Below are positions 1,414 to 28,072 of a stretch of DNA of 32,000 bases, one piece after another. Within the stretch, counting starts at the first letter, position 1. The number at the start of each line of letters is the position of its first letter. A program made the translations under genes and the position numbers. Origin of the DNA: Microcystis aeruginosa NIES-2549 (GTDB taxonomy: Bacteria > Cyanobacteriota > Cyanobacteriia > Cyanobacteriales > Microcystaceae); assembly GCF_000981785.2 (NCBI RefSeq), contig NZ_CP011304.1:2700001-2732000 (forward strand), given 5' to 3'. The notes under the pieces are model-generated. The model had not been told where the DNA came from, ran no database searches, and saw only the letters and a program-made list of their open reading frames with translations.

Positions 1414-2751
1414 ATGCAAAAACCTTTAGCATGGCATTGGCGATCGCTACCCCTGCATCAGCGCACCGGTTCCGAGGTTTTTGCCTGCTTATTCGCCCAA
1501 GATGCGATCGCTACCTTACTAGAAAGTCCCTATCCGGGTAATTCCCTCTCCCGTTACTCTCTTTGTGCTGGTTCCCCGCGTCAGCTTTGGACCCCCGCAC
1601 TGGGCGAAATTTTGCCCTTTTTAAGCAGTTTACTCCCCCAAACTCGATCGGATGTGCTTCCCGATCATCTTCCCTTCCATGGCGGTTGGTTGGGGTGGTT
1701 AGGCTACGATTTAGCTTGGGAAATAGAAAAATTACCCGACAGGAAAGCTGATACTCTCCCTTTTCCCGTCGCTTATTGGTATGAACCAGATAGTTTTGCC
1801 CTTCTCGATCACCAAGCACAAATTCTCTGGTTAGCTGCCACTAAACCCGAAGATTTAGATAAATACGAACAATCTTTAACCACTAACCCCGATTTTGAGT
1901 TCATCGATCCTCATCCCTCTCCCTTAATCTTTTATACTTCTCAACTCGACTACGAAAAAGCTGTTAAAAAAGCCTTAGATTATATCAGAAAAGGCGATAT
2001 TTTTCAAGCAAATTTATCCCTAAGATTTCAAAGCACAACTAAGGCAAAAGGATGGCAAATTTACCGCAGTTTACAACAGATAAACCCTTCTCCTTTTGCC
2101 AGTTATTGGCGCACACCTTGGGGCGAAATGATTAGTTGTTCTCCCGAAAGATTGGTAAAATTAGAAAGAGGAATAGCCAGCACTAGACCAATCGCTGGAA
2201 CCCGTCCCCGGGGTAAAACCGAGGCACTCGATCGACAATTGGCCGAGGAACTATTAACTAATAAAAAAGAGCGGGCCGAGCATATTATGCTAGTGGATCT
2301 AGAACGTAATGATCTAGGTAGAGTTTGTGAATGGGGATCGGTTTATGTTGATGAATTACTGACGATCGAGCGTTATAGTCACGTTATGCACTTGGTCAGT
2401 AATGTTCAAGGAAAATTAGATAAAAAGTATCATGCTATTGATTTAATTAAGGCTCTTTTCCCTGGGGGAACAATTACCGGTTGTCCGAAAGTTCGCTGTC
2501 TAGAAATTATCGAAGAATTGGAACCAGTGCGACGCAATTTATTCTATGGTTCCTGTGGCTATATTGACCTACGGGGTCATTTAGATTTAAATATTCTCAT
2601 CCGTACCCTATTAATGACTACTCAAGGGAATTTAAACACCGTTTGGGGACAGGTGGGAGCGGGAATAGTTGCCGATAGCGATCCCGAAAAAGAATGGTTA
2701 GAATCCCTTCATAAAGCTGAGGCACAATTAATCGCTTTACGTTCTTTTTAA
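1414..2751 (+). CDS. pabB: Chorismate-binding enzyme, aminodeoxychorismate synthase component I-like (PabB/TrpE family)
   Basis: Family motifs are present: SPERLV, PIAGTRPRG, ERAEHIMLVDLERNDLGRVC, FPGGTITGCPKVRCLEIIEELE, YGSCGYID. At 445 aa it lacks the long TrpE N-terminal regulatory region, which favours PabB. Confidence 0.7.
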   Translation: MQKPLAWHWRSLPLHQRTGSEVFACLFAQDAIATLLESPYPGNSLSRYSLCAGSPRQLWTPALGEILPFLSSLLPQTRSDVLPDHLPFHGGWLGWLGYDLAWEIEKLPDRKADTLPFPVAYWYEPDSFALLDHQAQILWLAATKPEDLDKYEQSLTTNPDFEFIDPHPSPLIFYTSQLDYEKAVKKALDYIRKGDIFQANLSLRFQSTTKAKGWQIYRSLQQINPSPFASYWRTPWGEMISCSPERLVKLERGIASTRPIAGTRPRGKTEALDRQLAEELLTNKKERAEHIMLVDLERNDLGRVCEWGSVYVDELLTIERYSHVMHLVSNVQGKLDKKYHAIDLIKALFPGGTITGCPKVRCLEIIEELEPVRRNLFYGSCGYIDLRGHLDLNILIRTLLMTTQGNLNTVWGQVGAGIVADSDPEKEWLESLHKAEAQLIALRSF

Positions 2752-2796
2752 TTTTTGATTTCAACAAACTAACCTATTGTTGCATCTTGCATGAGT

Positions 2797-2827
2797 GCCT
2801 TTTGCCTTTTGCCTTTTGCCTTTTGCC
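2797..2827. repeat. Heptamer tandem repeat (GCCTTTT)x4
   Basis: gccttttgccttttgccttttgccttttgcc is read directly downstream of the pabB-like stop. Confidence 0.9.
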
Positions 2828-2918
2828 TATCCTAACCAAGAAATTAATTTGGCACGACTACTTACTTTTTACCTTATCTGCTATTTTGTAGGATAGCTTC
2901 CGATCTTGAACCCTATTC

Positions 2919-3884
2919 ATGAATCAAATTTCTATCGCTGTTACTTTTTTTCTTAGTTTAGTCTTGACCTCGCTTCCCTTATTACTTTTGGGGACAGCCG
3001 TTTCCAGTTTTTTGCTAGTTTTCGTCAATAAACAGCGATTAGTGGCGATATTTCCCCGCAATCGACTGTTAGGAGCGATCGTTGGCAGTGCCATCGGATT
3101 AATCTTACCCGTCGGACAATACGGCACGATTCCCGTCGCTAGAAGATTTTTATTAGAGGGAGTACCCCCAGGGGTGGTGTTTAGCTTTCTCACCGCTGCA
3201 CCTACCCTAAATATCGTCACTCTTTGGCTAACTTGGCAGACTTTCACCTATTCTAGTATTTTCTTCTATCGATCGCTTTCGGTCTGGTTAATGGCAATTT
3301 TTATCGGCACTCTCTTTAGTTTCTACCGGGAAAAACCCCGCACCGATAGCGAAATTCCCCTGGAATCGAGTTTAGTTCTTTCCGGGAGTTTTTTACCGGA
3401 GGAAGCAGCCAGTCAACCCCTGCAAAGAGTCGGCAGTCTTGTTTATGAGTATAAAACTAGAGATAGGCAAGCTTGGCCGATTTCTGTGCAGTTATTTCTC
3501 GATAACTTTATCGATGAAGCACTGGAATTAGGGGGATTATTAATTATAGGCTGTGCAATCGCTAGTGTCTTTCAGCTATTATTACCTCAGAGTCAATTAA
3601 TTGCCTGGGGGAATACTCCCGTTACTCAAATTCTCGTGCAGTTGTTCTTTGGTTTCACCCTCGCTGTTAATGCCAGTCTTAGCACTTTTGTCCCCGGTTC
3701 TTTAATTACTAATCTGTCCGTGGGTTCCACTCTAGCTTTTTTACTGATCGCTTCCCTCATTGATATTAAAGCTTTTATCCTCCTCCTATCAGCTTTCCGT
3801 GCTAAAATCGTCCTTTATTTCGGAATTTTATGGCTGTTAATGACTTTTTTAGTGGCTCTGATCCTCGGTTTTTATCTAGGTTGA
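2919..3884 (+). CDS. Polytopic membrane permease (COG0701/DUF318-like predicted permease)
   Basis: 321 aa with about 8 hydrophobic helices in two halves joined by a hydrophilic linker. This resembles the two-repeat 'predicted permease' family. The family assignment is by recollection only. Confidence 0.6.
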   Translation: MNQISIAVTFFLSLVLTSLPLLLLGTAVSSFLLVFVNKQRLVAIFPRNRLLGAIVGSAIGLILPVGQYGTIPVARRFLLEGVPPGVVFSFLTAAPTLNIVTLWLTWQTFTYSSIFFYRSLSVWLMAIFIGTLFSFYREKPRTDSEIPLESSLVLSGSFLPEEAASQPLQRVGSLVYEYKTRDRQAWPISVQLFLDNFIDEALELGGLLIIGCAIASVFQLLLPQSQLIAWGNTPVTQILVQLFFGFTLAVNASLSTFVPGSLITNLSVGSTLAFLLIASLIDIKAFILLLSAFRAKIVLYFGILWLLMTFLVALILGFYLG

Positions 3885-4325: not shown

Positions 4326-5459
4326 AATTTAATTAAATCACAATATATAGGATATAATAAAACAAATAGTAACTCAAAAAAGCCATGAAAAACTACACTT
4401 GGGAATACATTCAAAAATATCCGAAACAAACTAAAAGACTATTAGGAATTGACTACCAACAACTAGAACAACTGATGGCACTTGGAAAACTTATACATCG
4501 GAAAAACCAATCAGAAATCGAAAAAACCAAAATTAGGATTAATCAACCAGGAAGCGGAACACCTCCTAAATTATCAGAAGAGGAACAAATTGTTCTAATG
4601 TTGGTTTATTTAAGACATCATCTAAGCTTTCAAATCTTAGGACTAATATTTCAAGTGAGTGAATCAACGGCTCATAATATCTTTACCTATTGGCAAAAAC
4701 TTTTTGAAGGAGAGTTACCGCCAAGTTTGTTAGAACAAATAAAGAAGTGCCAAGAAGAGGAAATAATAATTGAACAATTAAGGGATTATGAGTTGATTGT
4801 CGATAGCGCAGAACAGCCCGTGGAGAGGCCGACCGATTATCAAGAACAAAAAATATATTATTCGGGAAAGCAAAAAAGACATACTTTAAAAAGTCAATTT
4901 ATTGTCTTGCCAAAAGCTGAAGATATTGTTGATGTAGTTATTGGTCAACCTGGTCCGACGAGCGACATAAAAATCTGTCGGCAAACTTTAAGCAAATTCG
5001 ATTCTCAACAAACTTTTATTGGAGATAAAGCTTACCTAGGAGAAAATCAAATCAGAACTCCTGATAAAAAACCTAAGAATGGAGAATTAACCGAGAATCA
5101 AATTAAAGAAAATAAAGTTTTATCATCTCGGCGAATTTTTGTTGAGCATTTAATTCGAGTTGTCAAAGTATTTAAAGTAGTTCAAGAAAGATTTAGATTA
5201 AATAAAAGTCGATATAAATCGGTTTTACTGACCGTTTGTGGCTTAGTAAGGTTGAGAATTAGTGCGCTAATTTTAGAAGTAATAGAAGGGGAGCAATCAG
5301 GGGAAGTAATTGACGTTATAATTAGCCATAGTTTTCCGTCAAAATTGGATTTTGTCTCTTCAAACCCTGATTAATCGGTTTTGAGAGCTAATTTTGACTC
5401 TTGGTCTAATCTGCCTCTCTTCCTTGCTGTGACTGACTTATAAATTTTTGGAGAGGTCT
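4314..5459 (+). mobile_element. IS element, 1146 bp, IS5-superfamily/PIF-Harbinger-like (DDE_Tnp_4-type) with a 3-bp AAT target-site duplication
   Basis: An 11-bp perfect terminal inverted repeat (AGACCTCTCCA at 4314-4324; TGGAGAGGTCT at 5449-5459) extends into imperfect AT-rich matches. AAT is at 4311-4313 and 5460-5462. There is a single transposase ORF inside. Confidence 0.85.
4385..5374 (+). CDS. DDE transposase (N-terminal HTH plus DDE_Tnp_4-like catalytic domain)
   Basis: Candidate catalytic residues lie in LIVDSAEQP, FIGDKAY and FVEHLI. YYSGKQKRHTLK is typical of PIF/Harbinger-like IS5-superfamily transposases. Confidence 0.8.
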   Translation: MKNYTWEYIQKYPKQTKRLLGIDYQQLEQLMALGKLIHRKNQSEIEKTKIRINQPGSGTPPKLSEEEQIVLMLVYLRHHLSFQILGLIFQVSESTAHNIFTYWQKLFEGELPPSLLEQIKKCQEEEIIIEQLRDYELIVDSAEQPVERPTDYQEQKIYYSGKQKRHTLKSQFIVLPKAEDIVDVVIGQPGPTSDIKICRQTLSKFDSQQTFIGDKAYLGENQIRTPDKKPKNGELTENQIKENKVLSSRRIFVEHLIRVVKVFKVVQERFRLNKSRYKSVLLTVCGLVRLRISALILEVIEGEQSGEVIDVIISHSFPSKLDFVSSNPD

Positions 5460-9757: not shown

Positions 9758-10195
9758 ATGACACGAGATACTCTACATATAAGCACTCAGGTTTTACCCG
9801 GTAATAAAATTGAAATTGCCACCCCTGAATTAAATGTGGGTGAGGTGGTTGAAGTTTTGATACTTGCCAAAACTCCTCAAAATAATCAAGATAAAAATCA
9901 ATCTGATCCCTTAATAGGTTTATTTAAAAGTTACCCCGATTTAGCAACTCAATCTGAAGAAAGTGTACAAGGTTATCCAGTTTATCTAGAGCAGACGGAG
10001 GGAGATTTAGCTAAGAATGGAAAAAATATTGAGCAACTTAATAATAATTCCAATATCGGTCAAACACAGTTGGGTTTTGGAGAATTTATTCAAAAATTTC
10101 GCCAAGAACATAATCTAGAACAAAATGGTATTGAATCAGAAGAACTTTTGGAGGGAGTGCGCGATTTATCCTCGGGAAGCGAGATAATTTGGTGA
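9758..10195 (+). CDS. Antitoxin-like protein, unusually long (145 aa), upstream partner of the PIN toxin
   Basis: Its stop TGA (10193-10195) overlaps the GTG (10192-10194) of the PIN-domain ORF. The middle and C-terminal regions are acidic and low-complexity. Confidence 0.55.
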   Translation: MTRDTLHISTQVLPGNKIEIATPELNVGEVVEVLILAKTPQNNQDKNQSDPLIGLFKSYPDLATQSEESVQGYPVYLEQTEGDLAKNGKNIEQLNNNSNIGQTQLGFGEFIQKFRQEHNLEQNGIESEELLEGVRDLSSGSEIIW

Positions 10196-10608
10196 ATTTA
10201 CGTTTTTTACTCGATAGTAATATCTTATCAGAGCCTTTACGACCTCAACCGAATACAAAGGTTATGGAAAAACTACTTGAACATCAGCAAGAAATCGCTA
10301 CAGCGACAGTTGTTTTGCATGAGCTTCTATTTGGCTGTTATCGTCTTCCTGATTCAACAAAACGAAAAAATATTGAGGAATATCTCAAAGAAACTGAATT
10401 AATATTACCTTTATTATCTTATGATCACAAGGCTGCCATCTGGCACGCACAAGAAAGATCACGTCTTGTTAAATTGGGCAAAACACCGCCTTTTGCTGAT
10501 GGTCAAATTGCAGCAGTTGCCTACGTTAATCAACTTATTTTAGTCACTAATAATATCTCAGATTATCGAGAATTTCAGGGACTTAAAATAGAAAATTGGC
10601 ATTATTAA
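10192..10608 (+). CDS. vapC: PIN-domain ribonuclease toxin (VapC/FitB-like)
   Basis: FLLDSNILSE (first acidic PIN residue), VLHELLFG, LVTNNISDY (C-terminal acidic motif). The GTGA overlap with the upstream ORF favours the GTG at 10192 over the TTG at 10189. Confidence 0.8.
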   Translation: MNLRFLLDSNILSEPLRPQPNTKVMEKLLEHQQEIATATVVLHELLFGCYRLPDSTKRKNIEEYLKETELILPLLSYDHKAAIWHAQERSRLVKLGKTPPFADGQIAAVAYVNQLILVTNNISDYREFQGLKIENWHY

Positions 10609-21584: not shown

Positions 21585-21857
21585 TTAAGTATAGTGATAT
21601 CGTGCTGCTAAAAACTCAATGCGGTCATCTTTGACTCGATAGACTAGACGGTGTTCTGTGGTAATTCGGCGTGACCAAGTATTAGCTTCAAGATACTTTA
21701 TGGGTTCTGGTTTGCCTATCCCAGTAAAGGGATCGGCGGTGACAGATTCTACGAGATCGAGTAGGCGAAAGGCGATTTTTTTATCTGTTTTGTACCACCA
21801 TCTTAAATCTTCTCGAAATTGGTGATCAAAGACAATTGCCCTACTCTTGGCGTTCAA
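21585..21857 (-). CDS. yoeB: YoeB/Txe-family toxin
   Basis: FREDLRWWYKTDKKIAFRLLDLVESV..DPFTGIGKPEPIKY...WSRRITTEHRLVYRV...IEFLAARYHY. The start is a TTG that overlaps the yefM end, so it is uncertain. Confidence 0.85.
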   Translation of the reverse strand: MNAKSRAIVFDHQFREDLRWWYKTDKKIAFRLLDLVESVTADPFTGIGKPEPIKYLEANTWSRRITTEHRLVYRVKDDRIEFLAARYHYT

Positions 21858-22140
21858 TTCCTAACTCCTGACAAAGTTCTGTAACTGTCTGTCCCGGTAT
21901 TGTTTGAACGTCCCTCTCCATTGAACGTTCCAGTGCTGCCAATAACTTTCGAGCATTCGCAGGCGATCGCAAAAGATAAACGGTTTCTAATAAGCCAGTT
22001 AATTCCTCTGCGCTTAATAGTGCCATATCTTTATGACCAGGGCGAGTAATAATCGCCATACTATTCTCGCTTTCCAGTCGATCCAGAAGGCTCGCTAAAT
22101 TTTCTTGAGCTTGAGTGTAGGTAGTTTGGATAGAAAACAT
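21841..22140 (-). CDS. yefM: Phd/YefM-family antitoxin
   Basis: YTQAQENLASLLDRLESENSMAIITRPGHKDMALLSAEELTGLLETVYLLRSPANARKLL. Confidence 0.85.
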   Translation of the reverse strand: MFSIQTTYTQAQENLASLLDRLESENSMAIITRPGHKDMALLSAEELTGLLETVYLLRSPANARKLLAALERSMERDVQTIPGQTVTELCQELGIERQE

Positions 22141-22393: not shown

Positions 22394-22426
22394 AGAAAAG
22401 GGGTTTCTTTGAGAAACCCCTTTTCT
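22394..22426. repeat. Palindromic element H3 (G/C variant)
   Basis: agaaaaggggtttc tttga gaaaccccttttct, with the same gccatag / ggaata flanks as H1. Confidence 0.95.
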
Positions 22427-22517
22427 GGAATAAGCCGCGATCGCTAGGAGTTGCTAACTCGCGCTAGACTGGATTCAAATAATTAACTTCCAATCAATTC
22501 AAAGCAAGGACAAACCC

Positions 22518-23540: not shown

Positions 23541-23573
23541 AGAAAACGGGTTTCTTTGAGAAACCCGTTTTCT
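23541..23573. repeat. Palindromic element H4 (C/G variant)
   Basis: agaaaacgggtttctttgagaaacccgttttct. Confidence 0.95.
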
Positions 23574-23664
23574 GGAGAAACAGGGCAAAATTATCGCCAA
23601 GTTCAAAACAACTGATAATCACATCGACAATCTTCGAGACAATCACCGAGCTTTATTCCTGTCA

Positions 23665-23910
23665 ATGATGCTAACAAAATATCTAAAACAAGCAATGGAA
23701 CTGGCAACCTATGAAGTTCTAGAAGACGGTACTTTTTATGGAGAAATTCCGGGATTTGAGGGAGTATATGCTAATGAAACAACCCTCGAAGCTACTAAGG
23801 AACAGTTACAGGAAGTTTTGGAAGGCTGGGTTATTTTAGGACTACGCTTACAGCATCAGTTACCGATTGTTGACGGTATCAATCTAACCCCTCAACAAAA
23901 AATCGCCTGA
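23665..23910 (+). CDS. hicB: HicB-family antitoxin (second pair)
   Basis: YEVLEDGTFYGEIPGFEGVYANETTLEATKEQLQEVLEGWVILGL. Confidence 0.8.
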   Translation: MMLTKYLKQAMELATYEVLEDGTFYGEIPGFEGVYANETTLEATKEQLQEVLEGWVILGLRLQHQLPIVDGINLTPQQKIA

Positions 23911-24131
23911 TGCCACCTTTTGCCCCCATCAAAAGGAAAGAGTTAATTCGCCAGTTGAGAAAGCTGGGATTTTCTGGTCCTCTGGTAGGAGGAAATCATC
24001 AATATATGGTGCAGGGAAAATTAAAAATCTGGATTCCTAATCCACACCAAGGAGATATCAGTAAAAGCTTGCTGGCTAAAATTTTACAACAAGCAAATAT
24101 TAGTAGAGAAGAATGGGAAAAATTACGTTAA
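23910..24131 (+). CDS. hicA: HicA-family toxin (second pair)
   Basis: TGATG stop/start overlap. ELIRQLRKLGFSGPLVGGNHQYMV...IPNPHQGDISKSLLAKILQQANISREEW. Confidence 0.8.
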   Translation: MPPFAPIKRKELIRQLRKLGFSGPLVGGNHQYMVQGKLKIWIPNPHQGDISKSLLAKILQQANISREEWEKLR

Positions 24132-25967: not shown

Positions 25968-26180
25968 GTGCAACTAAAAAAGGGGTTTCAAGCTAACCTG
26001 GGAATAGTTGAGACAGTTATAGCGGGCATTATCGTTGCAGCAATTTTGGGTATTACAAAGTTTGTCGTCAAGTCAAATGGTATTTCTCAATTGCCATCTC
26101 AAATAGTCTCTAATTCCTTATTAGTAGATAATCAAGATGAACTATATAGAAAATTAATAAAGCACAGAGAAATATTATGA
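25968..26180 (+). CDS. Hypothetical 70-aa single-TM protein (GTG start), convergent with the Toprim-like gene
   Basis: One hydrophobic helix (IVETVIAGIIVAAILGI). It is preceded by TATAAT (25952-25957) and two ATATACAGAAAG repeats. It may not be a real gene. Confidence 0.3.
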   Translation: MQLKKGFQANLGIVETVIAGIIVAAILGITKFVVKSNGISQLPSQIVSNSLLVDNQDELYRKLIKHREIL

Positions 26181-26212
26181 GGCTGTCATTCCCATCTGGA
26201 GCCATAGTTCTC

Positions 26213-26857
26213 TCAAATCTCGTATAACTCCTGTAACCATCTCAAAAAAATTGCCGATTGGGGATGGGAGCAATTAAGTATTTTTTGTTTTACTGCATCG
26301 TGAAGTTGTTTCCCCGGCGGATCTTGCCAAGCTAAATAGGTATGAATATTAGCCTTATCTAGATGATAATCTCTATAGGTTGCCCCTTGTTGTTTTGCCT
26401 CTATCACCTTGTTTTGTGTATATTGCCAAAGATTATTATCGGGAACTAAATAGGCTAAAAAAGTCTCTAACATCCCTCTAGATTGATTGTCAGGCATCAT
26501 CCACACACCGAATTTTATACCCGATTCTAGAGTTATAATTAATCCCTCTGCTGGTAAATTTTGAGGGAAGTTAGGTATATTTGGTAAACAGGCATTATAT
26601 AAACTTTTCCAACGATTATCAGGTTCTTGGTCTGCATCCATAATAATTCCTAAATGAGTTAGTCCACTATCATTGATTTCGTTGTAAATATTATCGCTAT
26701 CGAGTAAACTCTCAATGCTACCAGCGGGTTTAATATAGATAATAGCTGTGTCCTTTGTCTCTCCCCAAGAGATGCCATGGGCTTCTGCTAATTCGGGAAT
26801 CACTCTCATGTCTTCTCTTCCCTCTACCAAAAGTTTTTTAGGATGTATTCTGGGCAT
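26213..26857 (-). CDS. Small Toprim-like protein (214 aa), downstream partner of the ATPase
   Basis: LLVEGREDMRV (conserved Glu12, VEGxxD pattern) and GIIMDADQEPD (D74-x-D76) resemble the Toprim Glu plus DxD. The ATG lies 2 nt after the ATPase stop. Confidence 0.6.
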   Translation of the reverse strand: MPRIHPKKLLVEGREDMRVIPELAEAHGISWGETKDTAIIYIKPAGSIESLLDSDNIYNEINDSGLTHLGIIMDADQEPDNRWKSLYNACLPNIPNFPQNLPAEGLIITLESGIKFGVWMMPDNQSRGMLETFLAYLVPDNNLWQYTQNKVIEAKQQGATYRDYHLDKANIHTYLAWQDPPGKQLHDAVKQKILNCSHPQSAIFLRWLQELYEI

Positions 26858-26859
26858 TT

Positions 26860-28008
26860 TTAGCGAACCTCAATATCTCTTTCAGAAGCGAGGTAAATTT
26901 GTCTAGCATTGAAGGAAACTGCTTTTTCTTTGTCCCTATCTATCCTTTGAATAGTAATCTCGTTATCGGTAATTTTTTCTTCGGTAATTAATTCGGCTAA
27001 ACTTTGCCAACAATCCCGGCTGTGAGTGGTGGCGAATACCTGAATATTGAGTTTTTTAGCGGTTTCCCAGACGACTTTCCACATATCAGTCATGACAGTA
27101 AAGTGCAATCCGCTATCAATTTCATCAACTAATAAAATTCCATTTTCAAGATTAACCATCGCTAAAACTAATCCTAACATTCGCCAAAATCCATCGCCTA
27201 AACTGCCAATAGGTATAGGTTGATCATGATTTTTAATTTTGATTAAAAACCCACCTCTAACACCTAGGTTATTTGCAGTTGAATACTTGCCAGAACCAAT
27301 ACTGGCTATTCTTTCAATTTTTGGCTCAATAATTTTCAAAGATTCAATAATTAAATCTTCTAAAGGAGAGAGAACAATGTTGTCAAAAAGTGCCGCCATA
27401 TCAGAACTTGTTAGAGAAAATGGTGTTAAGAACCTCAATTCAATTTTATTATCAATACCTATTTTATGGGAAATTCTGCTTAAACTAGCCATTCTTCTGG
27501 AATCTCTGGCAAGAGTACCGTTGGCAAGAAGTTCCAGTTCAATAGGTTTTTGTGATTGACTCCATCTAATACTTAAAAGAAGTTTATTCCATTCCTCATC
27601 GTCGAAAATATTATCATTATTTAAATCATCATTTTTGTCTGAAAATAGAGATAGTTGTATAGGAATACTTTTAACAGAAATAGTAACACTTTCCTGATGT
27701 GATTCCCTAGATCCAATGATAATAATTTCCTTACTTGGGATGATTTCATGCCCAGGAAATAAATGACAAATTTCAAAAACTTTAGTGCGACCAGCTAACT
27801 TATTTTCCAACCAAGCGAACTCACCTCTATAGCTAATAGTTTCAAGAAATATATCTATATTATTCTGAGCATACAAAAACTGAATCGCTTCTAAAATAGA
27901 AGTTTTACCGCTATTATTTTTACCTACTAAGAGATTAATTCGACCAAGATTGGCCATCTCAAAATTTTGAAAACCGCGAAAGCCTTCAATTTTTAGGGAT
28001 TCTAACAT
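26860..28008 (-). CDS. ABC-type/AAA15-AAA21-like ATPase (RecF/OLD/AriA-like)
   Basis: N-terminal KIEGFRGF plus Walker A GKNNSGKT (K35). Signature-like SLGDGFWRML, Walker B ILLVDEIDSGLH, H-loop FATTHS. Confidence 0.8.
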   Translation of the reverse strand: MLESLKIEGFRGFQNFEMANLGRINLLVGKNNSGKTSILEAIQFLYAQNNIDIFLETISYRGEFAWLENKLAGRTKVFEICHLFPGHEIIPSKEIIIIGSRESHQESVTISVKSIPIQLSLFSDKNDDLNNDNIFDDEEWNKLLLSIRWSQSQKPIELELLANGTLARDSRRMASLSRISHKIGIDNKIELRFLTPFSLTSSDMAALFDNIVLSPLEDLIIESLKIIEPKIERIASIGSGKYSTANNLGVRGGFLIKIKNHDQPIPIGSLGDGFWRMLGLVLAMVNLENGILLVDEIDSGLHFTVMTDMWKVVWETAKKLNIQVFATTHSRDCWQSLAELITEEKITDNEITIQRIDRDKEKAVSFNARQIYLASERDIEVR

Positions 28009-28072
28009 GAGTAATTACCCCGGATTTTCCGTTATTAAATCTAGTTTATCTCAACCTCAGAAAACACCTCAA

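Follow-up and report, generated by a model that had tools for sequence, protein, structure and literature searches.

Introduction

Systems that combine an ATP-binding cassette (ABC) ATPase with a nuclease of the Toprim/OLD kind are widespread. AbiL (AbiLi/AbiLii) of Lactococcus is a validated two-gene abortive-infection system, and PARIS (AriA/AriB), which is also called class 4 OLD-like, is often borne by phages or their satellites. In this study, we analyzed two adjacent genes of Microcystis aeruginosa NIES-2549, here named A and B, that encode an ABC ATPase and a small Toprim-type protein. They lie in a stretch of 32,000 nucleotides (nt) of contig NZ_CP011304.1 (positions 2,700,001 to 2,732,000), which we call the window and whose own numbering is used throughout. 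An initial annotation had proposed that the pair is a PARIS/AbiL-like defence module whose partner protein may represent a distinct family with no described function. Our results suggest, with a probability that we place at about 0.6 and by analogy with the systems above, that the locus is a self-contained, split OLD-like two-gene conflict module, akin to PARIS and AbiL, that acts in abortive defence or as a toxin-antitoxin (TA) system.

In PARIS, AriA holds AriB through the N-terminal 53 residues of AriB, next to the catalytic Glu; the N-terminal part of the Toprim domain contacts the ATPase, and the metal site has the layout Glu, an acidic residue four positions on, and DxD/E (PMC11464382). 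When a phage protein acts as trigger, AriB is set free in an ATP-dependent manner and goes on to cleave tRNA-Lys; the triggers are anti-restriction proteins, and conservation is poor in the parts of AriA that bind them (PMC11464382). PARIS behaves as a type II TA system (PMC10802264). The active site of class 2 OLD consists of E400, E404, D455, D457, T506/E508 and K562, the helical domain supplying the last two of these elements (Schiltz et al., PMC6755086), and the predicted structure of AbiLii was reported to superimpose best on the OLD nuclease 6NJV (PMC13064643). The ATPase plus Toprim/OLD systems listed by Deep et al. and by a 2026 review include AbiL, RloAB and an unnamed Nostoc sp. two-gene system (Makarova 2011), which were called structurally distinct from PARIS and of unproven function (PMC10802264, PMC13064643). 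The authors of the PARIS study regard it as an open question whether every ABC ATPase plus Toprim/OLD system acts against phage, and by what means infection is sensed (PMC10802264).

Profiles of the pair that we describe are found in PADLOC under PDC-M38. The PDC entries comprise 145 “phage defence candidates” (Payne et al. 2024, bioRxiv 10.1101/2024.01.29.577857), all of which their authors call untested; the ground for nomination was that members lie within BREX, DISARM or type I restriction-modification (RM) loci. The M in “PDC-M” stands for multi-gene, and the supplementary table of that study lists PDC-M38 as two-gene cassettes. In a literature search, we found no paper naming DUF3226, the Pfam family of B, or PDC-M38, and none on cassette polymorphism, an OLD-type fold or catalytic mapping for PDC-M38. 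In a phylogeny of AAA15/21 defence ATPases from the work on PARIS, the annotations comprise DUF4435, RloB, DUF4276 and Toprim-Old, whereas DUF3226 is missing (PMC11464382). That the unnamed Nostoc system might belong to the DUF3226 family is a lead only. New here are the predicted OLD-type fold of B with a proposed catalytic map, the obligate pairing of the two genes, their accessory status with a deletion remnant, a recombining polymorphism of two cassettes, and the carriage of distant relatives as near-sole cargo of small plasmids.

Results

The A-B pair belongs to the DUF3226/PDC-M38 family and is an obligate two-gene unit

Judged by profile matches, the A-B pair is a member of a catalogued, computationally nominated candidate family, DUF3226/PDC-M38. 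The best PADLOC match of protein A was the PDC-M38A profile PDLC04611 (E-value 2.6e-88, amino acids (aa) 1-382 on profile positions 1-383 of 383). Protein B matched Pfam DUF3226 (PF11536) over profile positions 1-208 of 208 (2.3e-64, 217.4 bits versus a cut-off of 27), and the PDC-M38B profile PDLC04624 with aa 4-213 on positions 11-219 of 220 (3.8e-69). Gene order and co-orientation are also those of PDC-M38, and nothing separates the locus from this family. Searches of Pfam and PADLOC with B gave no match at E≤1 to AriB, DUF4435, AbiLii, mad4 or HEC-01B, and PDC-M38B was the only PADLOC result. Thus, the partner is distinct from AriB and DUF4435, as the initial annotation had suspected, but it is not uncatalogued.

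The pairing of the genes is strict. In every one of the 82 loci examined, B is directly preceded by an A homologue, always as a separate open reading frame (ORF). The gap between the genes is -4 to +9 nt in 80 of these loci and exactly 2 nt, the mode, in 45. This consistent pairing and tight spacing indicate that A and B form an obligate, probably translationally coupled unit. In the window, both ORFs are on the minus strand and are joined as TAA-AA-ATG, as first noticed: the stop codon of A (TAA, 26860-26862) is separated by 2 nt from the ATG of B (26855-26857). A Shine-Dalgarno-like GAGG at 26868-26871 lies 10 nt 5' of this ATG, and these 10 nt include the A stop codon and the AA; the arrangement suggests that translation of B is probably coupled to that of A. 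Because the profile matches are full-length (E 2e-64 to 3e-88) and the tight junction is conserved, neither ORF can be ascribed to chance.

The family is large, and common in cyanobacteria, cable bacteria and Planctomycetota. Relatives of B formed 3,067 clusters at 50% identity (E≤1e-3), and the representatives listed are stand-alone proteins, mostly of 200-240 aa and typically about 215 aa. Among species-representative genomes, the number of stretches with a gene for a B relative is at least 589; most are cyanobacterial, and cable bacteria and Planctomycetota are represented as well. One locus (L077:324-3382) has a second A-like ATPase gene (36% identity, 2336-3382) directly after B, which may represent tandem systems or a three-gene variant.

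B is predicted to have an OLD-type Toprim fold with a conserved set of candidate catalytic residues

The motifs LLVEGRED (aa 9-16) and MDADQEPD (aa 73-80) that had been quoted for B are present at these residues. An AlphaFold2 model of B, built from a 42-sequence alignment, had a pLDDT (predicted local distance difference test) score of 93.7 and a predicted template modelling score (pTM) of 0.89. The best Foldseek matches of this model were the C-terminal Toprim-plus-helical regions of class 2 OLD in three Xcc OLD entries, 6njx, 6njv and 6njw (E 3e-4 to 8e-4, probability 1.00, TM-score 0.45-0.52), with alignments of about 225 columns on targets of 204-208 residues. Entry 6nk8 followed at E 2e-3, and the next matches were retron Eco2, class 1 OLD, AriB and GajA, with RecR as a weak match. 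The AriB chain 8v46_D reached E 0.15, probability 0.23 and TM-score 0.28. These results support a Toprim/OLD fold for B, as predicted from the model, and agree with the proposal that an ABC ATPase is paired here with a separate Toprim-type protein.

Sequence comparisons did not detect this relationship. The Pfam OLD-like_TOPRIM model (PF20469) matched only aa 9-48 of B and remained below its cut-off (12.6 bits versus 23.2, E 0.21), and PDB sequence and profile searches with B gave noise only, so that the link between B and OLD comes from the fold match alone. A search of the BFVD viral fold library with B gave nothing significant.

The model shows the signature of Toprim domains in B: strand 1 of its secondary structure is followed by a conserved Glu, and strand 3 by a DxD motif. 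We determined conservation among 134 representatives of the B family that are 29-48% identical to B (Table 1). Conserved acidic residues among the homologues, on which the original proposal depended, were found: E12 is kept in 132, D74 in 134, and position 76 is D, N or E in 134. Residues D/E16, E131 and K168 are likewise conserved, and the order and spacing of all six resemble those in OLD; this proposed mapping was made from order, spacing and the whole-chain fold match. From conservation and the model, we regard E12, D16, D74, D76, E131 and K168 as candidate catalytic residues of B.

A carries a conserved ABC head and a beta-rich insert

All motifs that had been quoted for A are likewise present at the named residues: GKNNSGKT (aa 29-36), SLGDGFWRML (aa 269-278), LLVDEIDSGLH (aa 292-302) and FATTHS (aa 325-330). 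The ABC set of Walker A, signature, Walker B/D-loop and H-loop is complete and conserved, with G29-T36, S269-G273, D295-E296-x-D298 and H329 invariant or nearly so across 51 A sequences. In Pfam, A matched AAA_15 (5.6e-25) and AAA_21 (4e-18). Among the PADLOC profiles of related systems, AbiLi (PDLC02336) matched A over its full length (9e-54, aa 1-382 on positions 1-340 of 340); two AriA profiles were far weaker than PDC-M38A and AbiLi (1.4e-34 and 2.2e-25), and HEC-01A profiles gave weak matches of about 1e-13.

The AlphaFold model of A (pLDDT 79.7) consists of the conserved ABC head and a beta-rich insert at about aa 47-260, in which all low-confidence segments fall. Fold matches to PtuA, GajA, Rad50 and SMC heads were about equal (E about 1e-12, TM-score 0.41-0.48). 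We considered whether A is structurally AriA-like and found no support for this, as AriA was not among the 50 fold matches listed. A RecF/SMC identity of A was rejected: the NCBIfam matches to RecF, Rad50, PtuA and MAD3 are confined to the N-terminal P-loop and far below cut-offs. Several A homologues carry the public names “recombination protein F” or “chromosome segregation protein SMC” (P0275, P0287, P0347, P0385, P0395, P0410 and P0413), which look like over-annotation through the shared ABC head.

The pair shares its architecture, but not its B component, with AbiL and PARIS

The architecture of the locus is that of PARIS and AbiL, as had been claimed. Like AbiL, it is a two-gene combination of an ABC ATPase with a Toprim/OLD-like nuclease (predicted in the case of B). 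Unlike AbiL, it has a B component without an AbiLii profile match at E≤1, and it resides in a different host phylum. AbiLii and B both point to 6NJV, one of the three top Xcc OLD matches of B, which indicates fold likeness but not sequence membership. With PARIS, the locus shares an ABC ATPase together with a Toprim nuclease encoded separately by adjacent genes, and A matches the AriA profiles, though far more weakly than those of PDC-M38A and AbiLi. The metal-site layout and the N-terminal contact of the Toprim domain with the ATPase are counted here as further likenesses, the pair itself being known from sequence and model. However, B is about 90 aa shorter than AriB and is not a DUF4435/AriB protein by profile hidden Markov models (HMMs); A is about 90-100 aa shorter than AriA and has a beta-rich insert instead of coiled-coil legs; and the A-B pair is rarely phage-borne. 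The description as PARIS/AbiL-like holds for the architecture, but by its B component the locus is neither PARIS nor AbiL.

The same ABC ATPase plus Toprim logic is found in OLD proteins of class 1 (P2 Old, Ts OLD) and class 2 (GajA, Bp OLD, Xcc OLD), in which the two parts are fused in one polypeptide, whereas they are separate in the pair. The whole chain of B matches the C-terminal region of class 2 OLD, with proposed counterparts of E400, E404, D455, D457, E508 and K562. Class 2 OLD (Gabija) needs a GajB helicase partner, but none lies beside the pair. HEC-01 (Hma-embedded ATPase plus TOPRIM, Payne et al. 2024) resembles the pair in having two genes and an OLD-like metal site, and differs in that B has no HEC-01B match.

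The pair is accessory in Microcystis and varies in two recombining cassettes

We searched metagenome contigs using the DUF212 neighbour gene as an anchor. Of 11 Microcystis contigs, 7 had the pair at the DUF212 junction; among 69 contigs of other cyanobacteria, the count was 0. It is thus accessory in Microcystis and not a syntenic core feature. In the four Microcystis contigs without the pair, homology to the window runs through the 64-nt spacer downstream of DUF212 and into the first 40-66 nt of A, ending at 27969 in L085 and at 27943 in L088, L089 and L093. The retention of this remnant of A indicates that the pair was deleted in these strains rather than absent from the start. On two of these contigs, the region beyond a dapB-like gene (L089:8337-10228 and L093:8652-9999) contains several small ORFs, which by eye may be nucleotidyltransferase/HEPN-like genes of MNT-HEPN-type TA pairs. 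A Uma2 gene is found near the empty site of L085 (7883-8506).

Next to this presence-absence variation, we compared 14 Microcystis loci that carry the pair; L003 is the same contig as L091, and L086 and L087 have identical A alleles, so that at most 13 are independent. Flanking genes are 95-99% identical among these loci, apart from L007, whose upstream flank is truncated. Proteins A and B each fall into two classes: A-I and A-II are 53-61% identical to each other and B-I and B-II 77-83%, and all four combinations of A and B class occur. Sliding nucleotide comparison showed that the divergence is concentrated in two cassettes with sharp edges. Cassette V1, which corresponds to the insert of A, has 28-50% nucleotide identity between A-I and A-II. 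Cassette V2, which spans the last ~20 aa of A and aa 1-75 of B, i.e., the N-terminal half of the Toprim domain, has 47-67% identity between types. Outside V1 and V2, including the ATPase motifs and aa 76-214 of B, nucleotide identity is ≥92-100%. The type 1 A tail occurred with B-I in 7 of 7 loci and the type 2 tail with B-II in 7 of 7, whatever the V1 class. Each tail type is frequent: of 119 A representatives from Microcystis, 50 have one and about 68 the other. Residues E12, D/E16, D74 and D76 are kept in both V2 types. V1 and V2 thus recombine freely at a fixed locus.

Within class A-I, dS was uniform at about 0.08-0.10, and dN/dS (nonsynonymous to synonymous rate) was 0.50 for V1 compared with 0.15 for the ATPase head and 0.11-0.15 for crtE and DUF212. 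The value for V1 is a faster rate at the protein level, and no proof of positive selection. We also considered whether the V1 cassette of A-II had been imported recently from one of the other genera sampled, and found no support for this, as the best match was 27% identical.

By analogy with PARIS, we propose that V1 is a trigger-sensing or oligomerisation region and that V2 is an A-B interface module. The contact of AriA with the N-terminus of AriB and the poor conservation of the trigger-binding parts of AriA, which parallels the variability of V1, make V2 and V1 natural candidates for these roles.

Relatives of the pair are carried by small plasmids and occasionally adjoin other candidate systems

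Distant relatives (22-32% identity) with an adjacent ATPase are carried on small mobilizable plasmids. In the 6449-bp ColE10/MOBQ Citrobacter plasmid NZ_CP055541.1 (L164), the two genes overlap by 4 nt and are almost the only cargo outside the plasmid backbone. The ATPase and DUF3226 pair of a small Acinetobacter plasmid, NZ_CP060815.1 (L165), is likewise nearly all that this plasmid carries beyond its backbone. Such carriage as near-sole cargo implies that the module is autonomous and mobile.

A classical defence-island context was considered as a general feature and rejected, as the pair usually stands solo among housekeeping genes. Some non-housekeeping neighbours nevertheless recur, and we count these (Uma2, PD-(D/E)xK and RM genes) in favour of the defence reading. 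The commonest directly adjacent genes, 18 of 132, encode a Uma2-family putative restriction endonuclease (PF05685; PADLOC PDC-S03). With an HMM of our own, position -1 had Uma2 in 8 of its 69 genes and position +1 in 5 of its 72, each time in the orientation of the pair, versus 3 of 801 (about 0.4%) at other positions. Placements both upstream and downstream occur, and many of the Uma2 loci are from related Nostocales, so that the events are not all independent; the Uma2 gene might encode a third component or belong to a candidate system that co-localises with the pair. At a few loci, PD-(D/E)xK, type I or type IIG RM, or DpdF genes adjoin the pair. A ~200-aa PD-(D/E)xK protein (PADLOC “PD_DExK, CAS-associated”, 8.5e-53) is encoded immediately upstream of A in Crocosphaera and Coleofasciculus.

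Proposed function and alternative explanations

Drawing on the analogy with PARIS and AbiL, we infer a defence role by sequestration and release. Protein A would be an ATP-dependent sensor and regulator, whose conserved ABC head would dimerise around ATP and whose hypervariable beta-rich insert, V1, would recognise a phage or mobile-element trigger. Protein B would be the effector, a metal-dependent nuclease of the OLD Toprim type with a two-metal site formed by E12, D16, D74, D76 and E131 and assisted by K168. A would keep B inactive through a contact between the C-terminal tail of A and the N-terminal Toprim half of B, both within V2. Upon sensing the trigger, A would release or activate B, which would then cut host or invader nucleic acid (tRNA or DNA), and infection would be aborted.

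Several results weigh against this reading. PDC-M38/DUF3226 members are computational candidates only, and HEC-01, whose architecture is similar, gave no protection against the phages assayed in E. coli (Payne et al. 2024). The recurrent neighbours in 75 non-Microcystis loci are mostly housekeeping genes (e.g., metH, alaS, U32 peptidase and topoisomerase I). No relatives of the pair were found in 50,697 phage genomes, and IMG/VR yielded a single distant relative pair. On the structural side, the TM-scores of B to OLD are modest, the residue-to-residue mapping between B and OLD depends on order, spacing and whole-chain fold match, and AriA is missing from the 50 fold matches listed for A. The co-segregation within V2 could reflect physical linkage of adjacent DNA and not a protein interface, and the dN/dS of V1 does not exceed 1.

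The main mechanistic rival, because the fold of B is nearer to DNA-cutting OLD than to AriB, is a direct nuclease of the Gabija/OLD kind, in which B degrades DNA and A gates it by nucleotide state (e.g., ATP depletion) without release by a phage protein. The best structural matches of B are indeed C-terminal regions of class 2 OLD (the GajA family), GajA is among the best fold matches of A, and K168 is conserved where K562 of OLD is needed for processive DNA cleavage (PMC6755086). However, we found no GajB-like (UvrD/PcrA-like) helicase beside the pair here or among the recurrent neighbours elsewhere, the ATPase and nuclease are separate polypeptides, and recognition of diverse protein triggers would account better than nucleotide sensing for a hypervariable insert with balanced alleles. 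We consider this mechanism unlikely. The same insert and polymorphism also bear on the idea of a selfish addiction module, in which B is a toxin and A its antitoxin and the two stabilise plasmids or chromosomal segments without a dedicated immune function, since addiction would not need a 382-aa ATPase with such features. Carriage as near-sole cargo of the 6.4-kb ColE10/MOBQ plasmid and of small Acinetobacter plasmids would suit an addiction module, as would the solo position of most pairs among housekeeping genes, the wealth of TA genes in the window (HicA, YefM/YoeB, PIN) and the TA-like behaviour of PARIS itself (PMC10802264). Yet Microcystis strains have lost the pair by deletion without obvious penalty, and TA behaviour and defence are not mutually exclusive; a purely selfish role seems quite improbable to us.

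RecR and RNase M5 are Toprim proteins too. A housekeeping role in nucleic-acid maintenance, either in RecF/RecR-like or SbcCD-like repair or in RNase M5-like RNA processing with an ATPase partner, could draw on this, on RecR as a weak fold match of B, and on the weak matches of the N-terminus of A to RecF, Rad50 and SMC models, which the public names of its homologues echo. A might also be co-transcribed with crtE and DUF212, as we did not find a sigma-70-like promoter within the 64-nt spacer between DUF212 and A. Against such a role, no NCBIfam model matched A above its cut-off, every repair model being far below (recF, 43 bits versus 172), and 4 of the 11 Microcystis contigs lack the pair, as does this junction in the 69 contigs of other cyanobacteria. 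Deep allelic cassettes, low GC content and plasmid carriage would also be unexpected for core repair genes, and this explanation appears very improbable. Altogether, we favour the split OLD-like conflict module with release or activation of B by A.

A further, tentative idea, which we find rather unlikely, is that the pair serves bloom-forming cyanobacteria as a working immune system assembled from exchangeable parts, with V1 as a swappable trigger module and V2 as a co-adapted docking module. If so, the conserved DNA between V1 and V2 would let Microcystis populations reshuffle both at a fixed chromosomal site. Such “cassette immunity” at the level of the population would have no described parallel in PARIS, AbiL or OLD, and the substrate or trigger might differ as well. 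The Microcystis allele series makes the sensor (V1) and interface (V2) hypotheses directly testable. Interactions between Microcystis and cyanophages affect harmful blooms, so that a polymorphic defence locus would help to interpret strain-level phage resistance. If the pair is not defensive, a PADLOC candidate that is widely scored in genome surveys would be a false positive, which would also be useful to know.

Features of the locus and other observations in the window

Table 1. Features of the A-B locus in the window, and neighbouring genes of related loci. Residue conservation refers to the 134 B-family representatives.
Feature	Location	Strand	Description
Gene A	26860..28008	(-)	382-aa ABC ATPase, AAA_15/AAA_21; PADLOC PDC-M38A
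Gene B	26213..26857	(-)	214-aa DUF3226 protein; PADLOC PDC-M38B
A-B junction	26855..26871	(-)	GAGG, 10 nt, B start ATG
Spacer, DUF212 stop to A start	28009..28072	(-)	64 nt; kept even in strains without the pair
A 5' end	27943..28008	(-)	Kept as remnant in pair-less Microcystis contigs (40-66 nt); left deletion breakpoint
Walker A, G29-T36	27901-27924	(-)	Gene A
Walker B, L292-D298	27115-27135	(-)	Gene A
Cassette V1	27228..27868	(-)	About A aa 47-260, beta-rich insert between Walker A and signature motif
Cassette V2	26633..26928	(-)	Last ~20 aa of A and B aa 1-75 (N-terminal half of Toprim)
Toprim domain, ~aa 1-125			Gene B; OLD-type, from model and Foldseek
Helical domain, ~aa 128-214			Gene B; OLD-type, from model and Foldseek
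E12	26822-26824	(-)	Proposed counterpart of OLD E400; conserved 132/134
D16 (D or E)		(-)	Proposed counterpart of OLD E404; conserved 119/134
D74	26630-26638 (D74-A-D76)	(-)	Proposed counterpart of OLD D455; conserved 134/134
D76 (D, N or E)	26630-26638 (D74-A-D76)	(-)	Proposed counterpart of OLD D457; conserved 134/134
E131	26465-26467	(-)	Proposed counterpart of OLD E508; conserved 134/134
K168	26354-26356	(-)	Proposed counterpart of OLD K562; conserved 127/134
59 nt 3' of B stop	26154..26212	(-)	Right edge of DNA common to haplotypes with different downstream contexts
Uma2 gene adjoining pair at -1 or +1	L011, L018, L023, L031, L051, L054, L058, L061, L062, L065, L073, L076		
PD-(D/E)xK gene upstream of A	L010:8176-8781; L040:8221-8856; L041:8221-8856		

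The flanks of the pair are housekeeping genes, as previously noted, with the 64-nt spacer on the upstream side. DUF212 lies upstream, and orf70 followed by a BT1 transporter gene (Pfam 3e-145) lies downstream; DUF212 and the polyprenyl synthase gene (crtE) were confirmed as neighbours through the annotation of a 98%-identical locus (L002). The flanking genes are 95-100% identical to those of Microcystis reference loci. MYAER_2756 of M. aeruginosa NIES-2549 and protein A have the same sequence (100% identity), and an exact-sequence look-up of B and the DUF212 protein found no record. At the right edge of the locus, homology of L001, L003 and L004 to the window stops at 26154-26155.

The pair is also more AT-rich than its surroundings, in agreement with what had been noted, with a GC content of 0.351 versus a window mean of 0.424. 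Only 2.3% of same-size segments are as low in GC, and the lowest among these is a transposase region. This stretch, the lowest in GC of the window (about 0.33-0.35), contains a DDE_Tnp_4 transposase gene (2e-29) at 4385-5374 (+).

In IMG/VR, the relative pair (L083:1-10197, UViG_2571042644_000001; B 33% identical, gap 3 nt) is found where an inovirus-like element ends; this element carries a gene for a Zot-like protein (phrog_1041, 2e-185).

Among the remaining ORFs of the window, an antisense ORF of 106 aa inside A (27239-27559, +) was rejected as spurious, as the opposite strand is a strongly conserved gene. A 70-aa ORF at 25968-26180 (+), convergent with B, encodes one hydrophobic stretch and has no Pfam match. 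It is 95.7-97% conserved in L005 and L084, but the surrounding DNA is equally so, and the segment 25958-26153 is absent from L003. TA genes elsewhere in the window are YefM/YoeB (1.6e-14 and 5e-31, 21585-22140, -), a HicA toxin gene (4e-9, 23910-24131, +) and a gene for a PIN-domain protein (1e-10, 9758-10608, +), which is preceded by a small overlapping ORF. Finally, exact 34-36-nt sequences of the window at 23541-23576 and 22394-22429 recur in a Microcystis ichthyoblabe locus (L005, at 13120, 14995, 15100 and 15944), and may represent a short dispersed repeat resembling a miniature inverted-repeat transposable element (MITE) or a repetitive extragenic palindromic (REP) sequence.

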